DNA from: a virus
Taxonomy: Duplodnaviria > Heunggongvirae > Uroviricota > Caudoviricetes
IMG/VR virus record: IMGVR_UViG_2671180296_000011
Coordinates: 1 to 23,719 of that record
Length of the DNA stretch: 23,719 nt
Direction: 5' to 3' (one strand)
Shown: positions 7,553 to 15,053 of the stretch, one piece after another
Numbering within the stretch: position 1 is the stretch's first letter
How the letters are laid out: each line of letters begins with the position of its first letter
Program-made: the position numbers and the translations under genes
The notes under the pieces: model-generated
The model's input: the letters and a program-made list of their open reading frames with translations, nothing else
Told to the model about the DNA's origin: nothing
Databases searched by the model: none

Positions 7553-8272
7553 TTAACGCACCCTGACAATGTTAATTTCAAAATCATCAATATGTCCGCT
7601 ATTAAGTATAACGAATTTCGTACTCCCACTTCTGTACGATTTTGATAACACAAGACGATCATCATAGCGTGCAAGAACGTAATACCAGACATTATCATAG
7701 TGGATCGACTGATATTCCCTCTTAAACTGGGGTTTGTACCAACCGGCAATAAGAGAGAATGTCCAGAAATAAATCATGAATCCAGCCATCATGAACTCAA
7801 TTCGGTGATGGCGAATAAAAGATACTTCCGAAAAGCATTTGACTGAAATAAGTTTTCTTCCTGACCTGACAAAAAGCGTAATTATAAAGACAGCAATAAC
7901 ACAAAAAATAAGCACATCTGGCTCAACGTACTGATGAATGACCGAAAATTCCAGAACAGGTGGAATAAAAAGCAGCAATATTGCCAGAAAAAGTCTGATA
8001 AAACTCAAATTCTGTATATTGTTTTTTTGTTTTATGCCTAAAAAGAAAACAATACCAACACCCCATCCAGTAAGGAATATAACGATAACGGTCACAGCAT
8101 AAAACAAACTTCGGGCCACATCATCAACGCCAGCTCCGACAACCCACCATGGAAAGCCATAGTAAAAGGAAGTACCCCATCCATAGAAATAAGCGCTTCC
8201 CCATCCAAGACAGCCCATATAAGCAATAAAAAGTGAAGAGTTCCTCAGTAGAGTACTGTCATCCATACCCAT
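7553..8272 (-). CDS. hypothetical polytopic membrane protein (239 aa) in AT-rich moron
   Basis: Long ORF in strongly AT-rich DNA. Aromatic/Gly-rich hydrophobic segments (YFYGWGTSFYYGFPWWVVGAG, VTVIVIFLTGWGVGIVFFLGI, LFLAILLLFIPPVL, LIFCVIAVFIITLF, MMAGFMIYFWTFSLIAGW) and a ~60-aa C-terminal soluble tail. Confidence 0.5.
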   Translation of the reverse strand: MGMDDSTLLRNSSLFIAYMGCLGWGSAYFYGWGTSFYYGFPWWVVGAGVDDVARSLFYAVTVIVIFLTGWGVGIVFFLGIKQKNNIQNLSFIRLFLAILLLFIPPVLEFSVIHQYVEPDVLIFCVIAVFIITLFVRSGRKLISVKCFSEVSFIRHHRIEFMMAGFMIYFWTFSLIAGWYKPQFKREYQSIHYDNVWYYVLARYDDRLVLSKSYRSGSTKFVILNSGHIDDFEINIVRVR

Positions 8273-8407
8273 CTCTCTAACAATTTAAAAACATTGACTC
8301 ACCTTACATAACAAAGGAGATTCCATGCAGTCAAGAGACTTCAGAGCAGGAGAAACTCATTGCACAATCGCCATCACGTTTAACGTTATGCACCGCTTTC
8401 CAGATAT

Positions 8408-8436
8408 AAAAAACCCGCTCGATGGCGGGCTGTAAA
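8408..8436 (-). terminator. rho-independent terminator, tR'-like, downstream of candidate late promoter
   Basis: Minus-strand GCCCGC-CATCGA-GCGGGT stem followed by TTTTTTATAT. About 40-70 nt downstream of the candidate promoter. Confidence 0.55.
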
Positions 8437-8478
8437 AATCCTTCTAACGTCAGGCATAAAACGCCCATCGTTAGAGCA

Positions 8479-8506
8479 AATTTACCACAGATTCGGGAAA
8501 AATCAA
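8479..8506 (-). promoter_or_regulatory. candidate late promoter (pR'-like) just downstream of the Q-like gene
   Basis: Minus-strand TTGATT - 16 nt - TAAATT immediately after the Q-like stop. Position matches the lambda pR'-qut-tR' layout. Approximate coordinates. Confidence 0.35.
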
Positions 8507-8511
8507 CAACA

Positions 8512-9333
8512 CTATCGCGTTACCCTCTTTAACTGCCGCTCCGCCCATGCCTCTTCAATGTCAAACCGAACCACCAACGTATCGTAAAAGCGTTTCACTG
8601 ATTTTTTCCATGTATCAAGCGTGATAGCACTCGTCACTTTGCATATGGCATTAAATGCCTCCGTTGATGGCAGTCTTTCATAGCCACGACCGCCACAACG
8701 CCGGCAGTCCCTGATAACAGGCATACCCCGTTTTTCTGACTCTTCACGATGAATGGCAACACCACGCCCACGGCAGTCTTTACAGGCAGTGGAGATCTCT
8801 CCCTTCCCTTTACATTCAGGACAGGAAACTTTCACCACCTCCCGGATTTTTTTCCATTCTTCCCAATAAGACGGATACACGCCTTTTGTGCACTTTGCCC
8901 ATACTGGCGGCTTACCATCCGGATACTGAACCTTGTTTGTAAAAACTTCGCTTTCAATAAATTTTTCCCCACGGCAACAAGAACACTGCTTTTTACTCGC
9001 TGCACTGCGGGCATAATCCTCAAAAGCATACGAAGCCATAATGCGCATCACTGCCGGTTTTATTTCTGCCGGAAGTTTTCTTAACGCCGCCACGCGATCG
9101 CACTGACTTAATGCATAATCTGCCAGTAATTCTGTTGCCCGCGCCCTGTCGTTCATACTAATGCCCATTTTCCCCAGGAACGCAGAAAATCCCATCTCAG
9201 CCCAGTTCTGTGTCATGCCCTGTGCAGCCATCACATCAGTGATACTCAGTGCATCTTTTGATGTCGAGGCGGATGCATCAGTCAGGCCTGGCGATTTCGG
9301 GGAATAGTATTTCGGTAAATCTTCCAGTTTCAT
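8512..9333 (-). CDS. putative late-gene antiterminator (Q position) with four DnaJ-type CxxCxGxG zinc-finger repeats
   Basis: 273 aa with CSCCRGEK, CPECKGKG, CKDCRGRG, CRRCGGRG. Start overlaps the rusA stop (ATGA). Sits between rusA and the pR'/tR'-like elements, as Q does in lambdoid phages. Confidence 0.5.
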   Translation of the reverse strand: MKLEDLPKYYSPKSPGLTDASASTSKDALSITDVMAAQGMTQNWAEMGFSAFLGKMGISMNDRARATELLADYALSQCDRVAALRKLPAEIKPAVMRIMASYAFEDYARSAASKKQCSCCRGEKFIESEVFTNKVQYPDGKPPVWAKCTKGVYPSYWEEWKKIREVVKVSCPECKGKGEISTACKDCRGRGVAIHREESEKRGMPVIRDCRRCGGRGYERLPSTEAFNAICKVTSAITLDTWKKSVKRFYDTLVVRFDIEEAWAERQLKRVTR

Positions 9334-9710
9334 TTTTGGACCTGCCCGTCATGCATTATTTCGTAAATCTTCACGCCCAGCCGACCACCAGGAACGACCT
9401 GACCTCGCACAATATTGATTTCATCAAACTGCTCGTCGTCGATAAGCAACCCCGCATGTGTCAGTGCATCCAGTGGTGCCTTCAGGATATTGTCCAGGTC
9501 ACGACGGCGCTTATCCGGCGGCTCTGCAATAATCTTTATCGCCAGCCTCCCGGACAGGTTTAATTTCAACCGCTGCTGGCGAACAATTAGTGCCACATCA
9601 CGGCGATAACGCTTTCCGGCCTCCGAGATGAAATACGTATTGCCATGACGTCGCCAGTAGGTATTCACCGTCGGCGGGTAAGGCAAAACAAATTCTATGC
9701 GTTCAGTCAT
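9330..9710 (-). CDS. rusA: RusA-family Holliday junction resolvase
   Basis: 126 aa: ...LPYPPTVNTYWRRHG...EAGKRYRRDVA...PPDKRRRDLDNILKAPLDALTHAGLLIDDEQ... matches RusA conserved acidic residues and motifs. Confidence 0.85.
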   Translation of the reverse strand: MTERIEFVLPYPPTVNTYWRRHGNTYFISEAGKRYRRDVALIVRQQRLKLNLSGRLAIKIIAEPPDKRRRDLDNILKAPLDALTHAGLLIDDEQFDEINIVRGQVVPGGRLGVKIYEIMHDGQVQK

Positions 9711-11532: not shown

Positions 11533-11556
11533 TAAAAAACCCGCCGAAGCGGGTTA
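11533..11556 (-). terminator. rho-independent terminator downstream of hok (minus strand)
   Basis: Minus-strand AACCCGC-TTCG-GCGGGTT stem followed by TTTTTTATT. Confidence 0.55.
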
Positions 11557-11625
11557 AGTGCGGGCGCGTTGAGGATGCCTGACACATCAGAGGTGGCGAG
11601 GGATTTCTCCCTCGCCAGGTCACTC

Positions 11626-11781
11626 TTACTCCTCAGATTCGTAAGCTGTGAAGACAGCGACCTCCGTCTGGCCGGTTCGGATTCGCACCTCGCAGAGGTC
11701 TTTCCTCGTTACCAGTGCCGTCACTATGACGGTTAAACAGATGACGATCAGGGCGATTAGCATCGCCTTTTGCTGCTTCAT
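11626..11781 (-). CDS. hok: Hok-family type I toxin (51 aa)
   Basis: MKQQKAMLIALIVICLTVIVTALVTRKDLCEVRIRTGQTEVAVFTAYESEE has the Hok/Gef pattern (TM helix, conserved Cys, RxxxxEVAxFxAYES). The in-frame upstream extension in the ORF track is not part of Hok. Confidence 0.8.
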   Translation of the reverse strand: MKQQKAMLIALIVICLTVIVTALVTRKDLCEVRIRTGQTEVAVFTAYESEE

Positions 11782-12206
11782 AGCCTGCTTCTCCTTGCCT
11801 TTCGGCACGTAAGAGGCTAACCTACGTGTGTAGAGCATAGATATGGCCTCAGATTAATGTTAAGCGTCTTGCCGGACGCGTAATGTTAACTGGGGCTTTT
11901 CTCTGTCTGCCTTACGGCGGCATGCCCGAGGCAGACAGCCTCAAGCACCCGCAGCAATTCTACTTAACTATCCTTTTCCCGCAAATCGTTTCTATCATGT
12001 GCACCTTATGTCCCCGTCCTTTAGGACTCGGAGGAGGTCAAGTAACAATGACTTGATCAAGATATATACTATATGTATTCTAAAAAGAATTAATGCTTGT
12101 ACCGTTCAATATGGACTTTAACGTTGAATATTTCTCAAGCGCAAGGAATTTCAAATATATTTAAACCAGAATTACGTTTATACAGGATTAGATAAGGATT
12201 TCATCT

Positions 12207-12791
12207 ATGTACATGCACGGTAGTTTGTCAAATCGCTTAGATGTCATAATTCGAGATGGCAACAAAATGGCATTACTTGTTATTGATGAGCATGATGACG
12301 CAGTGTTACCTAAAAAATTCGAATCAGGTAACGTTATTGGGTCTCTTCTTCCGAAGTCTTCTTCAGTTACTGCGTACCAACAACGCTTGCTTATGTTTAT
12401 GCAACGAATGGAAATACCTGTGTGGTGTATCAAACAACGCTCTAACATGTATGGGCCACTTCGCGTCCAATTAAGAGGACTTTATAATGGAACACAAAAA
12501 ATGATTACCAAAACAGGATATAATGCCTTTAAAAATACCACATTACATTCAGATTTACAGAGTCAAGGTATAACTCATTTAGTTGCCATGGGATGGAACG
12601 CGAATGTATGCGTCGCTGCAACATTAGGCGTTTTCACTCCAAGAAATAAACTGGAAGATGAAAATCATGGTCCAGGAGCATTACAACTAGGATACAAAAT
12701 ATTATCAACAGGCGATATATTACATGGCAATGGTGTTATTTCATGGGCATACCACCCATCAAGGATGATTGAATTTTTTGAACGTTTTTGA
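12207..12791 (+). CDS. isochorismatase-family (cysteine hydrolase/nicotinamidase-like) protein in low-GC island
   Basis: 194 aa. MALLVIDEHDD resembles the N-terminal Asp motif and THLVAMGWNANVCVAATL the G-x-x-[TA]-N-x-C-V catalytic Cys motif. AAGGA RBS 8 nt upstream. Plus strand among minus-strand neighbours. Confidence 0.5.
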   Translation: MYMHGSLSNRLDVIIRDGNKMALLVIDEHDDAVLPKKFESGNVIGSLLPKSSSVTAYQQRLLMFMQRMEIPVWCIKQRSNMYGPLRVQLRGLYNGTQKMITKTGYNAFKNTTLHSDLQSQGITHLVAMGWNANVCVAATLGVFTPRNKLEDENHGPGALQLGYKILSTGDILHGNGVISWAYHPSRMIEFFERF

Positions 12792-13085
12792 TAAGAATCG
12801 TTGAATATTGGAGTTACTGAGATTAATAAAGAACATTTCGCCTCGCCATATTACTTTCCCAATTTTGCATCATCACTGACTTCAAATGCGTCTGCATGCA
12901 TTCCAAATTCAATACCCGTTTTTATTAGCCATTTCTGGCGGTCTCCTGATGTTTTGAGGGTCGAAAATCCATCCAGTTGGTAAACAGGCTCTACCGTTAA
13001 GGATTTAATAAAAATCACTTTTGATTTAAATTTTCAGTATTTTGTCATCTGTGCTCACTGTATTGCCCCCTGAAAAATCACCTCA

Positions 13086-13352
13086 TTACCCCAGTTTTTC
13101 TGCCAGTGCCAGCTCAGCCCTTGCACCTGCTGACTGGAACCAGTTTCGAAGCATGTAAACCGCATCCGCGCTACGGAGCATTTCCATGCAGATATCCATG
13201 TAGTGCGACTGAGTCAGTCCGTCCGGAAGAACTGCCGGGTTTAAAACGGTATGCCCTTCCCGTTTTAGCTCCTCTTCCGCCTTGTGAAACGCCTCGCGGT
13301 TGAAATTTTCATACCCGGTCATCGGACCGGCGATATAAACCCTCACCCTCAC
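13086..13352 (-). CDS. DUF4406-like (nucleoside 2-deoxyribosyltransferase-like) small protein
   Basis: 88 aa MRVRVYIAGPMTGYENFNREAFHKAEEELKREGHTVLNPA... The YIAGPMTG motif is characteristic of this family as recalled. Confidence 0.45.
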   Translation of the reverse strand: MRVRVYIAGPMTGYENFNREAFHKAEEELKREGHTVLNPAVLPDGLTQSHYMDICMEMLRSADAVYMLRNWFQSAGARAELALAEKLG

Positions 13353-13786
13353 TCCATCACCTCCTGAAAATTACCCCGATAGAACGCCAGCACTCGCTGC
13401 ATAACCTCACTCTTCCGGCACTCGCGACAGATTATGTTCTGTTGTCTGTCGTAGCGGCGTATTTCTCCATCAGGTAATATCCTGATAAGGTCCGGATCAA
13501 CCACAGCAGGTTTCTTCACCTTTACCCTCGATAGTTTTTTGCGGGCGTTTTGCCAGTCCTTACGAGCCTGTTCAGACGGGAATAACCCGTAGCCAGAGTT
13601 GTATAAATCGCCACTGGCAACCAGCTCTCTGGCAAGAACACTCATCAGATATCTTGTCGCACCTGTTTTCGCTTCCGGTTGCCGTAACGTCTCGCGCCCG
13701 CTCAGACGCACAAGTTCAACAACCTGTACCTTAATTTTTTCCCGCTCTTCTTGTGTAAATACTTTTGCCATAAGCGCCTCCGGCAA
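13349..13786 (-). CDS. hypothetical protein (145 aa), nin-region
   Basis: ORF overlapping the downstream gene by 4 nt. Contains CRECRK. No family recognised. Confidence 0.4.
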   Translation of the reverse strand: MPEALMAKVFTQEEREKIKVQVVELVRLSGRETLRQPEAKTGATRYLMSVLARELVASGDLYNSGYGLFPSEQARKDWQNARKKLSRVKVKKPAVVDPDLIRILPDGEIRRYDRQQNIICRECRKSEVMQRVLAFYRGNFQEVME

Positions 13787-14591: not shown

Positions 14592-15053
14592 TCAAACAAA
14601 ACCAGCCGCTTTCCGGCGTTCATACTCCCGTTTCAGCAACTCAATTGGTGTTGGCCCCGACGGGCGTTTTGGTGCTGCCAGTTGCCGCCGGACTGGCGGA
14701 ACACTCAGGCCCATACCAACATGCTTTGCCCATTTCGTCAGTTGCCGTTCTGCAAGTCGTTTTAACTCCCCTTCGGTCATCTGACGTTCAATCCCCTTTG
14801 AACGCATCTCGAGGCAAATGTGATACAGCACAGGCTGAGACCACGGATATTTATCGCTTCCGTCGTATCGCCAGGACTCATTACGCCAGCGTCGGTACTC
14901 CTCCATCACGGTATCCACCGTCAGACCAAATGGATTTGCCCCGCTCTCCGAAATCAGCGCCACAAACTCAGCCAGGTCCGGAGGCCATGTTTCACCCGCC
15001 CGGCAGCGGTCCATGCACTGGCGGCAGACCTGCCGGATTTGCTGCTCAGTCAT
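14592..15053 (-). CDS. lambda P-like replication protein (helicase loader)
   Basis: 153 aa. ...[13 protein letters not shown]...[13 protein letters not shown]...[18 protein letters not shown]...[10 protein letters not shown]... parallels the lambda P C-terminal region as recalled. Overlaps the O-like stop. Confidence 0.6.

Follow-up and report, generated by a model that had tools for sequence, protein, structure and literature searches.

The DNA considered here is a stretch of 23,719 nucleotides (nt), called the window below and analysed at its full length, which corresponds to positions 1 to 23,719 of the IMG/VR virus record IMGVR_UViG_2671180296_000011 (Caudoviricetes). It includes the early-right minus-strand operon of a lambdoid Escherichia coli prophage, and between genes P and Q of this operon lies a short AT-rich island with a single gene on the plus strand, which is the subject of this report. 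The gene encodes a cysteine hydrolase with the isochorismatase fold, and we consider it reasonably probable that it is a single-gene moron of the prophage, i.e., a foreign insert whose product would be a catalytically competent amidohydrolase, expressed in the lysogen and acting on a small molecule. The insert itself consists of the following parts:

12207 to 12791, plus strand: coding sequence (CDS) of the isochorismatase-like cysteine hydrolase of 194 amino acids (aa), with the codons of its triad at 12285-12287 (D27), 12510-12512 (K102) and 12609-12611 (C135)

11997 to 12206, plus strand: AT-rich non-coding 5' part of the insert, with promoter-like hexamers and a Shine-Dalgarno sequence

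12792 to 12865, plus strand: short AT-rich 3' flank of the insert, beyond which backbone homology starts

Residues 22-139 of the product match the Pfam family PF00857 (isochorismatase) with 38.7 bits (E 1.4e-9), above the gathering score of 27. Relatives are few: 5 came from a word-indexed search among 5.8 billion proteins, whose repetition with a profile returned 8 proteins, and an exhaustive profile search of 1.84 billion representatives gave 67 at E<=1e-10, 14 of these at E<=1e-30. The family alignment used throughout this report consists of 37 sequences with a mean column identity of 25%. Searched against the PDB, the family profile matches 40 isochorismatase-like sequences (best E 8.6e-12); with the single sequence, only the Lys-to-Cys segment of RutB was found (E 1e-4). 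Eleven positions are invariant in the alignment (D27, E28, K102, F108, L113, L117, G129, C135, G141, G157 and W180), among them D27 within the motif LLVIDE, C135 within NANVCVA, and K102, which completes the triad. When aligned with RutB and TrtA, the three triad residues fall on the catalytic Asp, Lys and Cys of these enzymes, and the Cys segment of PncA lines up with C135. Structure prediction by AlphaFold2 from the same 37 sequences gave a confident model (predicted local distance difference test, pLDDT, 88.5; predicted template modelling score, pTM, 0.87), a smaller alignment of 6 sequences having yielded an unusable one (pLDDT 50.6). The model has the three-layer alpha/beta fold of the PF00857 superfamily, and Foldseek places it at E ~1e-7 from N-carbamoylsarcosine amidase, PncA, YecD, TrtA and NicF in the PDB, with template modelling (TM) scores of 0.5-0.64. 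As modelled and aligned, the product is an isochorismatase-fold cysteine hydrolase with a complete Asp-Lys-Cys triad, and it represents a rare, uncharacterised clade that diverges deeply from the rest of the isochorismatase-like superfamily. An earlier reading of the nucleotide sequence by itself (the sequence-only reading below) had assigned the product to this fold from an N-terminal Asp motif and a C-terminal Cys motif, and had named the lack of a fold match or the loss of the triad as grounds for giving the assignment up; the fold and the triad were both found, and both motifs are real, with D27 indeed N-terminal but C135 in the middle of the protein. The identification is not new, since the exact protein is already in the NCBI databases, from E. 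coli, as an "isochorismatase family protein" or "cysteine hydrolase family protein".

The gene is intact and, to judge from a comparison of alleles, under purifying selection. Relative to the allele in E. coli ES5, from which ~3.6% of CDS positions differ, there are no indels, and 14 codons differ synonymously and 2 non-synonymously. The start of the reading frame calls for a correction in public annotation, where RefSeq (PGAP) entries WP_171821335.1 and WP_157921589.1 begin at Met21 (codon 12267) and are 174 aa long, while GenBank KOA33354.1 carries the 194-aa form. Conservation across the family extends to the first 20 residues (M-x-x-x-G-S-L ... K), which are modelled as a strand and a helix with a pLDDT of 96-97, and a good Shine-Dalgarno sequence, TAAGGA at 12193-12198, can be read directly from the DNA 8 nt upstream of the ATG at 12207. 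For these reasons 12207 is likely the true start, which would give a product of 194 aa and put the RefSeq start 20 residues too late. Farther upstream, a promoter scan marked promoter-like sites at 12042-12070 and 12132-12161. Directly upstream of the better of these, a 12-nt indel at 12119-12130 distinguishes the locus from that of ES5 and removes one copy of an 11-nt direct repeat, CGTTGAATATT (12122 and 12799). We considered the repeat as an insertion signature and set it aside, as such a pair is expected at about chance level in 1.6 kb of AT-rich DNA and the upstream copy is absent in ES5. No riboswitch or other RNA clue was detected upstream of 12 homologous loci.

The composition of the island is that of foreign DNA. 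The GC content is 0.49-0.56 on both flanks; in 400-nt windows it drops from 0.52-0.56 to 0.36-0.39 over 12000-12999 and then recovers to ~0.5, and a 1069-nt block at 11997-13065, with a GC content of 0.366 against a mean of 0.478 for the whole window (standard deviation 0.037 for blocks of the same size), lies ~3 standard deviations low and is the GC minimum of the window. Third codon positions of the hydrolase CDS have a GC content of 0.29, as compared to 0.50-0.69 in the adjacent minus-strand genes. The only long open reading frame (ORF) of the block is the hydrolase gene at 12207-12791, a lone plus-strand gene in a minus-strand array, as the sequence-only reading had described it. Other prophages fill the slot between hok and the DUF4406 gene with co-oriented small genes (DUF4752, Ea22-like and DUF551). 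Two hallmarks of a prophage moron are therefore present at this locus, a deviant composition and a place within a gene order that is otherwise conserved, and the separate acquisition proposed in the sequence-only reading is supported by composition, by strand and by the comparison with other prophages. That reading had set the AT-rich block at 11840-13080, and sliding GC values bear it out as to the lowest-GC kilobase (12000-13000). Its boundaries were too wide, and we place the actual foreign DNA at about 11997-12865, or ~0.87 kb, because the left part of the wider interval is the hok/sok leader and the right part is phage backbone with the remnant of a DUF7167-like gene. The two features that mark these edges are:

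11776 to 11996, minus strand: hok mRNA leader and sok antisense region, of normal GC content, which occupies the first 157 nt (11840-11996) of the interval given by the sequence-only reading

12851 to 13018, minus strand: 55-aa ORF, the 5' remnant of a DUF7167-like nin-region gene and the marker of the right-hand junction

On the left, the Rfam sok model RF01794 matches 11776-11950 with 116 bits (gathering score 59), and over 11840-11996 there is 92-98% identity to phage 933W, in its sokW region, and to thousands of E. coli prophages, a homology that ends at 11996. On the right, ~12866-13085 is phage backbone and consists of the truncated DUF7167-like ORF and of DNA that is found upstream of DUF7167-type genes in other prophages. 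Residues 29-51 of the 55-aa ORF have 57% identity (over 23 aa) to residues 5-27 of a DUF7167 protein of E. coli GB089, and 12928-12978 is 81% identical to the DNA immediately upstream of the DUF7167 gene in the same strain. A sensitive blastn search found distant homology in ~770 E. coli genomes that spans 12920-13045 only, and homology to ordinary DUF4406-bearing prophages begins at ~13066. Arrival of the foreign DNA evidently truncated a DUF7167-like gene at the right junction. The 55-aa ORF differs from its counterpart in ES5 by 4 non-synonymous changes, and in one RefSeq genome it is labelled as a hypothetical protein. An overlapping plus-strand ORF at 12801-12983 was rejected as coding because all of its differences from ES5 (9/9) are non-synonymous.

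The arrangement of the genes around the island bears on when the hydrolase might be made. Minus-strand genes precede the island in the order DnaT-like O-type replication gene, P (14592-15053), DUF1627, DUF977 (13349-13786) and DUF4406 (13086-13352), and continue past it with mok/hok (11626-11838), two small PHROG families, DUF968, RusA (9330-9710) and the antiterminator Q (8512-9333). The label "nin region", given to the locus in the sequence-only reading, is a fair one, because the neighbours on the P side run from P to DUF4406 and those on the Q side from Hok to RusA and Q. The immediate backbone neighbours are:

11626 to 11838, minus strand: mok/hok type I toxin gene, the left backbone neighbour, outside the island (Pfam HOK_GEF, 81.6 bits; PHROG 251, "MokW-like host killing", E 1.8e-32)

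13086 to 13352, minus strand: DUF4406 (nucleoside 2-deoxyribosyltransferase-like) gene, the right backbone neighbour (Pfam DUF4406, 118.7 bits; PHROG 355)

The DUF4406 product has 88 aa here and 98 aa in ES5, having been shortened by a 1-nt indel at 13086, in the 3' end of its gene. A sub-threshold match to the Rfam isrK model lies just downstream of hok at 11534-11621 on the minus strand (31 bits, E 2.6e-4, where the gathering score is 50), and may be part of the 3' structure of the hok mRNA or a prophage small RNA. Elsewhere in the window there is a second low-GC block at 6931-8900 (minimum 0.39), between a DNA methylase gene and Q, which holds a 239-aa minus-strand ORF (7553-8272) that has no Pfam match and a weakly TrmB/MarR-like ORF of 106 aa (7181-7501). 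The minus strand carries the lytic genes; the plus strand carries, in the same direction as the hydrolase gene, a repressor-like HTH_3 gene (16898-17305). Expression in the lysogen seems most likely for the hydrolase because the gene has signals of its own, runs in the same direction as the repressor-like gene and is antisense to the lytic operon.

From these observations we propose the following course of events. The ~0.87 kb of AT-rich foreign DNA would have taken the place of the small genes that usually stand between DUF4406/DUF7167 and hok/sok. In the lysogen the hydrolase would be transcribed from its own putative promoter and translated from its own ribosome-binding site. By the chemistry known from the family, Asp27 would activate Cys135, which would attack a small molecule at the carbonyl of its amide, ureido or carbamoyl group; Lys102 would stabilise the intermediate, ammonia or an amine would leave, and the thioester acyl-enzyme would then be hydrolysed. 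During lytic growth the gene would be read in antisense, and the enzyme would on this account benefit the lysogen and not lytic replication. As to its biological role, our leading guess, and a tentative one, is that the enzyme destroys or converts a small molecule in a setting of conflict or detoxification.

The distribution of the hydrolase is that of a rare accessory gene. The island is present in 4 of the 5426 complete E. coli genomes that were searched, in all four at the same position between hok and DUF4406 and with 94.6% identity, and the cluster of hydrolase proteins at 90% comprises 28 distinct sequences on a few hundred contigs. A tblastn search of 50,697 GenBank phages gave no relative, nor was any relative confirmed in IMG/VR by a search with the 6-sequence alignment, and a plasmid search found only two remote generic isochorismatases. 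Among the viral structures of BFVD there are only 2 matches at E<=1e-3, one of which is a giant-virus protein named nicotinamidase. Literature searches gave no study of an isochorismatase-like protein of a phage or prophage.

The relatives that do exist are found in a diversity of settings, many of them suggestive of mobility. One lies in an accessory locus that adjoins the tail-fibre genes of a P2-like prophage, another on a contig of Enterobacter mori that carries transposases and a resolvase, another in a low-GC islet adjoining brkB (in a chromosomal brkB/LysR/SDR context), and yet another next to an acetyltransferase gene; in other Enterobacteriaceae the relatives likewise occupy low-GC islets. 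Copies flanked by insertion sequences (IS) occur in Sedimenticola and Psychromonas. In the Psychromonas metagenome-assembled genome GCA_023145575.1 there are at least 4 divergent paralogs, mostly beside IS or transposase genes (our loci L010, L011, L020, L023, L024 and L025, which include related metagenome contigs). Several of these loci share a conserved element of ~100 nt that starts right after the stop codon (consensus ...CCTRAGCTTGGGTTAATTAACA...), for which a terminator and a recombination site are candidates. Hydrolase-family genes in Psychromonas, whose genomes have ~35% GC, have a GC content of 0.39-0.42, against 0.38 for the E. coli island, values that are compatible with a low-GC gammaproteobacterial source of the island. 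On a Psychromonas chromosome (OY821666.1; L009:7935-13026) the homolog is tail-to-tail with an integron integrase gene (TIGR02249, 447 bits), and a Lamassu LmuA/LmuB pair (PADLOC, 471 and 786 bits) lies on the far side of intI. Integrons have been reported to carry defence cassettes (10.1101/2024.07.02.601719). We considered the idea of an integron cassette and did not retain it, as a simple search for the attC core-site pattern was unconvincing and the homolog on this chromosome lies behind intI, outside the array. A PLD-like gene with a match to the PADLOC candidate PDC-S05 lies 0.7 kb away from a further relative. The most elaborate arrangement is on hydrothermal-vent metagenome contigs (L029:195-6282, also L030 and L031), where six paralogs of 205-212 aa each stand in tandem on the same strand as a result of the duplication of ~1.1-kb units that include the intergenic DNA; Asp, Lys, Cys and Trp180 are kept in all six, the loops differ, and one paralog has IDT for IDE. 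Across the loci of the relatives no partner gene is conserved: where neighbours are of the same length (264 aa, 151 aa and ~220 aa) they are unrelated to each other, and the majority of all neighbours match nothing in Pfam, PHROG or PADLOC. Among remote members of the family, two (L014:4913-6654 and L017:4602-6678) are divergently paired with a tandem-domain mazG gene, an arrangement kept in two high-GC metagenomic lineages.

Several of the results weigh against the prophage hydrolase being an expressed moron with a part in the life of the lysogen. The promoter scan found 5 promoter-like sites where 4.2 would be expected in shuffled sequence, a terminator scan gave no intrinsic terminator for the gene (0 sites), and in E. 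coli H-NS may silence a foreign gene that is rich in AT. No PHROG family matches the hydrolase at E<=0.01 and no PADLOC family at E<=1. Defence-gene neighbours occur in 2 of ~10 contexts, which is a raw count, and remote members of the family (~25% identity) are found between mazG and an amino-acid ABC transporter gene, apparently in a housekeeping position, so that the family is not exclusively mobile or linked to conflict.

Of the readings that compete with a lysogenic moron, or that would make its function more specific, the one that takes up the sequence-only reading, where a NAD-related role was raised as a speculation, is a PncA-like nicotinamidase that turns nicotinamide into nicotinate and feeds the salvage of nicotinamide adenine dinucleotide (NAD) against NAD-depleting defence systems. 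Nicotinamidases do have the same fold and triad, and one of the only two significant structural matches among viruses is to the giant-virus protein of that name. In the 37-sequence alignment, however, no His and no second Asp is invariant or nearly so, and without a (nearly) invariant His the family does not conserve the Asp/His/His metal site that nicotinamidases have; hhalign with E. coli PncA (MG1655 sequence) aligns only residues 104-166 (probability 95%), which excludes the half with the metal site, and PRK11609, the NCBIfam PncA equivalog, reaches 12.3 bits where the cut-off is 174. A pncA gene is already present in E. coli, and our literature searches gave no phage nicotinamidase tied to counter-defence. 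A role during infection, also part of that suggestion, fits poorly with a gene that is antisense to the lytic early operon, an orientation that fits lysogen expression better. For these reasons the nicotinamidase reading seems very improbable. The other characterised classes fare little better by the same measure, the NCBIfam equivalogs of RutB (TIGR03614) and BiuH (NF050097) scoring 29.2 bits against a cut-off of 378 and 20.4 bits against 370. EntB is a weak match (19 bits, E 6.6e-3), and no ent, vib or phz genes are near the hydrolase gene. Isochorismatases proper, of the EntB/PhzD type, hydrolyse a vinyl ether without a Cys nucleophile, so the invariant Cys135 sets the hydrolase apart from them. 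The substrate is probably neither nicotinamide nor isochorismate, and by analogy with the rest of the superfamily a Cys-thioester amidohydrolase chemistry is a fair inference; by fold the hydrolase is equidistant from the ureido/amide hydrolases and from uncharacterised members.

It is possible, if somewhat unlikely, that the gene is ordinary cargo for accessory metabolism or detoxification (of a dietary, xenobiotic or antibiotic amide) that landed by chance in a permissive slot of the prophage and has no role for the phage. By fold, those relatives that have been characterised serve in catabolism or detoxification as amidohydrolases (RutB, TrtA/biuret hydrolase, N-carbamoylsarcosine amidase and maleamate amidohydrolase), the chromosomal copies stand beside unrelated genes (brkB/LysR/SDR, mazG/ABC transporter, acetyltransferase), and the gene is rare in viruses (none confirmed in IMG/VR, none in GenBank phages and 2 BFVD structures). 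Yet in the enterobacterial copies the enzyme stands alone, unaccompanied by any transporter, regulator or pathway partner, and the scores are far below the cut-off for every characterised equivalog. We regard as unlikely the more pointed proposal that the hydrolase is a dedicated conflict enzyme, either for anti-phage defence by the prophage or for anti-defence, that hydrolyses a nucleotide-derived signal, a phage-specific metabolite or the toxin of a competitor. It would account for the position of the gene in a slot where prophages commonly keep exclusion genes, adjoining hok/sok and a gene of the PHROG class "Ren-like exclusion"; for the relatives in the P2-like accessory locus, near LmuA/LmuB and the integron integrase, and near PDC-S05; and for an expansion of paralogs (six in tandem, at least 4 in one Psychromonas genome) in which a fixed triad is combined with varying loops, as expected for diversifying specificity. 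Against this proposal, the hydrolase matches no PADLOC model and has no conserved partner gene, the neighbourhood evidence is anecdotal, with remote members in housekeeping-like contexts, and literature searches on isochorismatase-like proteins with anti-phage or anti-defence activity gave nothing relevant. Least probable of all, and to our minds extremely so, is that the gene is inert, a remnant in decay that no longer has a function. The great rarity of the island, the missing terminator and weak promoter evidence, and the damage to the adjacent DUF7167-like and DUF4406 genes could be read in that way, but the 194-codon frame is intact despite its AT-rich DNA, the changes between alleles are overwhelmingly synonymous (14 to 2), and all catalytic and family-invariant residues are present. 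The reading that we prefer remains that of a lysogen-expressed, single-gene moron.

A bolder generalisation, which we regard as distinctly doubtful, is that the clade as a whole is an unrecognised class of mobile single-gene conflict enzymes, a cysteine hydrolase borne by lysogens, integrons and IS islets that destroys a small-molecule weapon or signal. If this were true, the candidate targets would be an immune nucleotide signal, a metabolite made by phages or an amide toxin of a competitor, and the differing loops, six-gene arrays and genomes with multiple paralogs would mirror an arms race over substrate specificity. If an immune signal, toxin or antibiotic turned out to be the substrate, the hydrolase would be a new enzyme class for the biology of phage-host conflict. 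Isochorismatase-fold enzymes are rare in viruses. The prophage copy is under selection and catalytically intact, and as a single gene of 194 codons with clear active-site mutants it is a cheap experimental target for a possible function in lysogenic conversion or conflict. Given how rare it is in phages, the mobile single-gene habit of the family and the tandem arrays of paralogs, we find the target reasonable if not compelling. The present gain is mainly one of annotation: the boundaries of the island are corrected, the start is fixed (194 and not 174 aa), and the label of nicotinamidase is best avoided.

Within the PF00857 superfamily the nearest solved members by profile are the uncharacterised structures 2a67 (E. 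faecalis) and 3lqy (Oleispira), and the prophage hydrolase is only 15-24% identical to any solved structure, with ~50 residues outside the common core. Its family has a conserved N-terminal strand and helix of its own (residues 1-20), a Glu28 after the catalytic Asp that gives "IDE" in place of the usual "VDxQ" and that is invariant in the 37 sequences (the IDT paralog of the six-gene array being outside the alignment), the motif QQ(R/K) at 58-60, the invariant Trp180 and a conserved C-terminal (I/L)xF(Y/F) strand. With PncA it has in common the fold, the triad, presumably the thioester chemistry and an alignable C-terminal half, and it differs in its N-terminal half, which gives no alignment, and in the missing metal ligands. 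RutB, TrtA and BiuH provide the best matches in single-sequence searches of the PDB (8bkd, E 1e-4; 6xix, E 1e-3) and their catalytic Lys and Cys segments align well, but the similarity is limited to residues ~77-123 and the prophage locus has no rut or biuret pathway context. The closest parallel to the locus as a whole is with the morons, or lysogenic-conversion genes, of other lambdoid phages, such as bor and lom of lambda. The prophage hydrolase differs from these in its undetected terminator and weak promoter evidence, and it is like them in being a single foreign gene of deviant composition that occupies a variable slot of a conserved operon in an orientation independent of the lytic programme.

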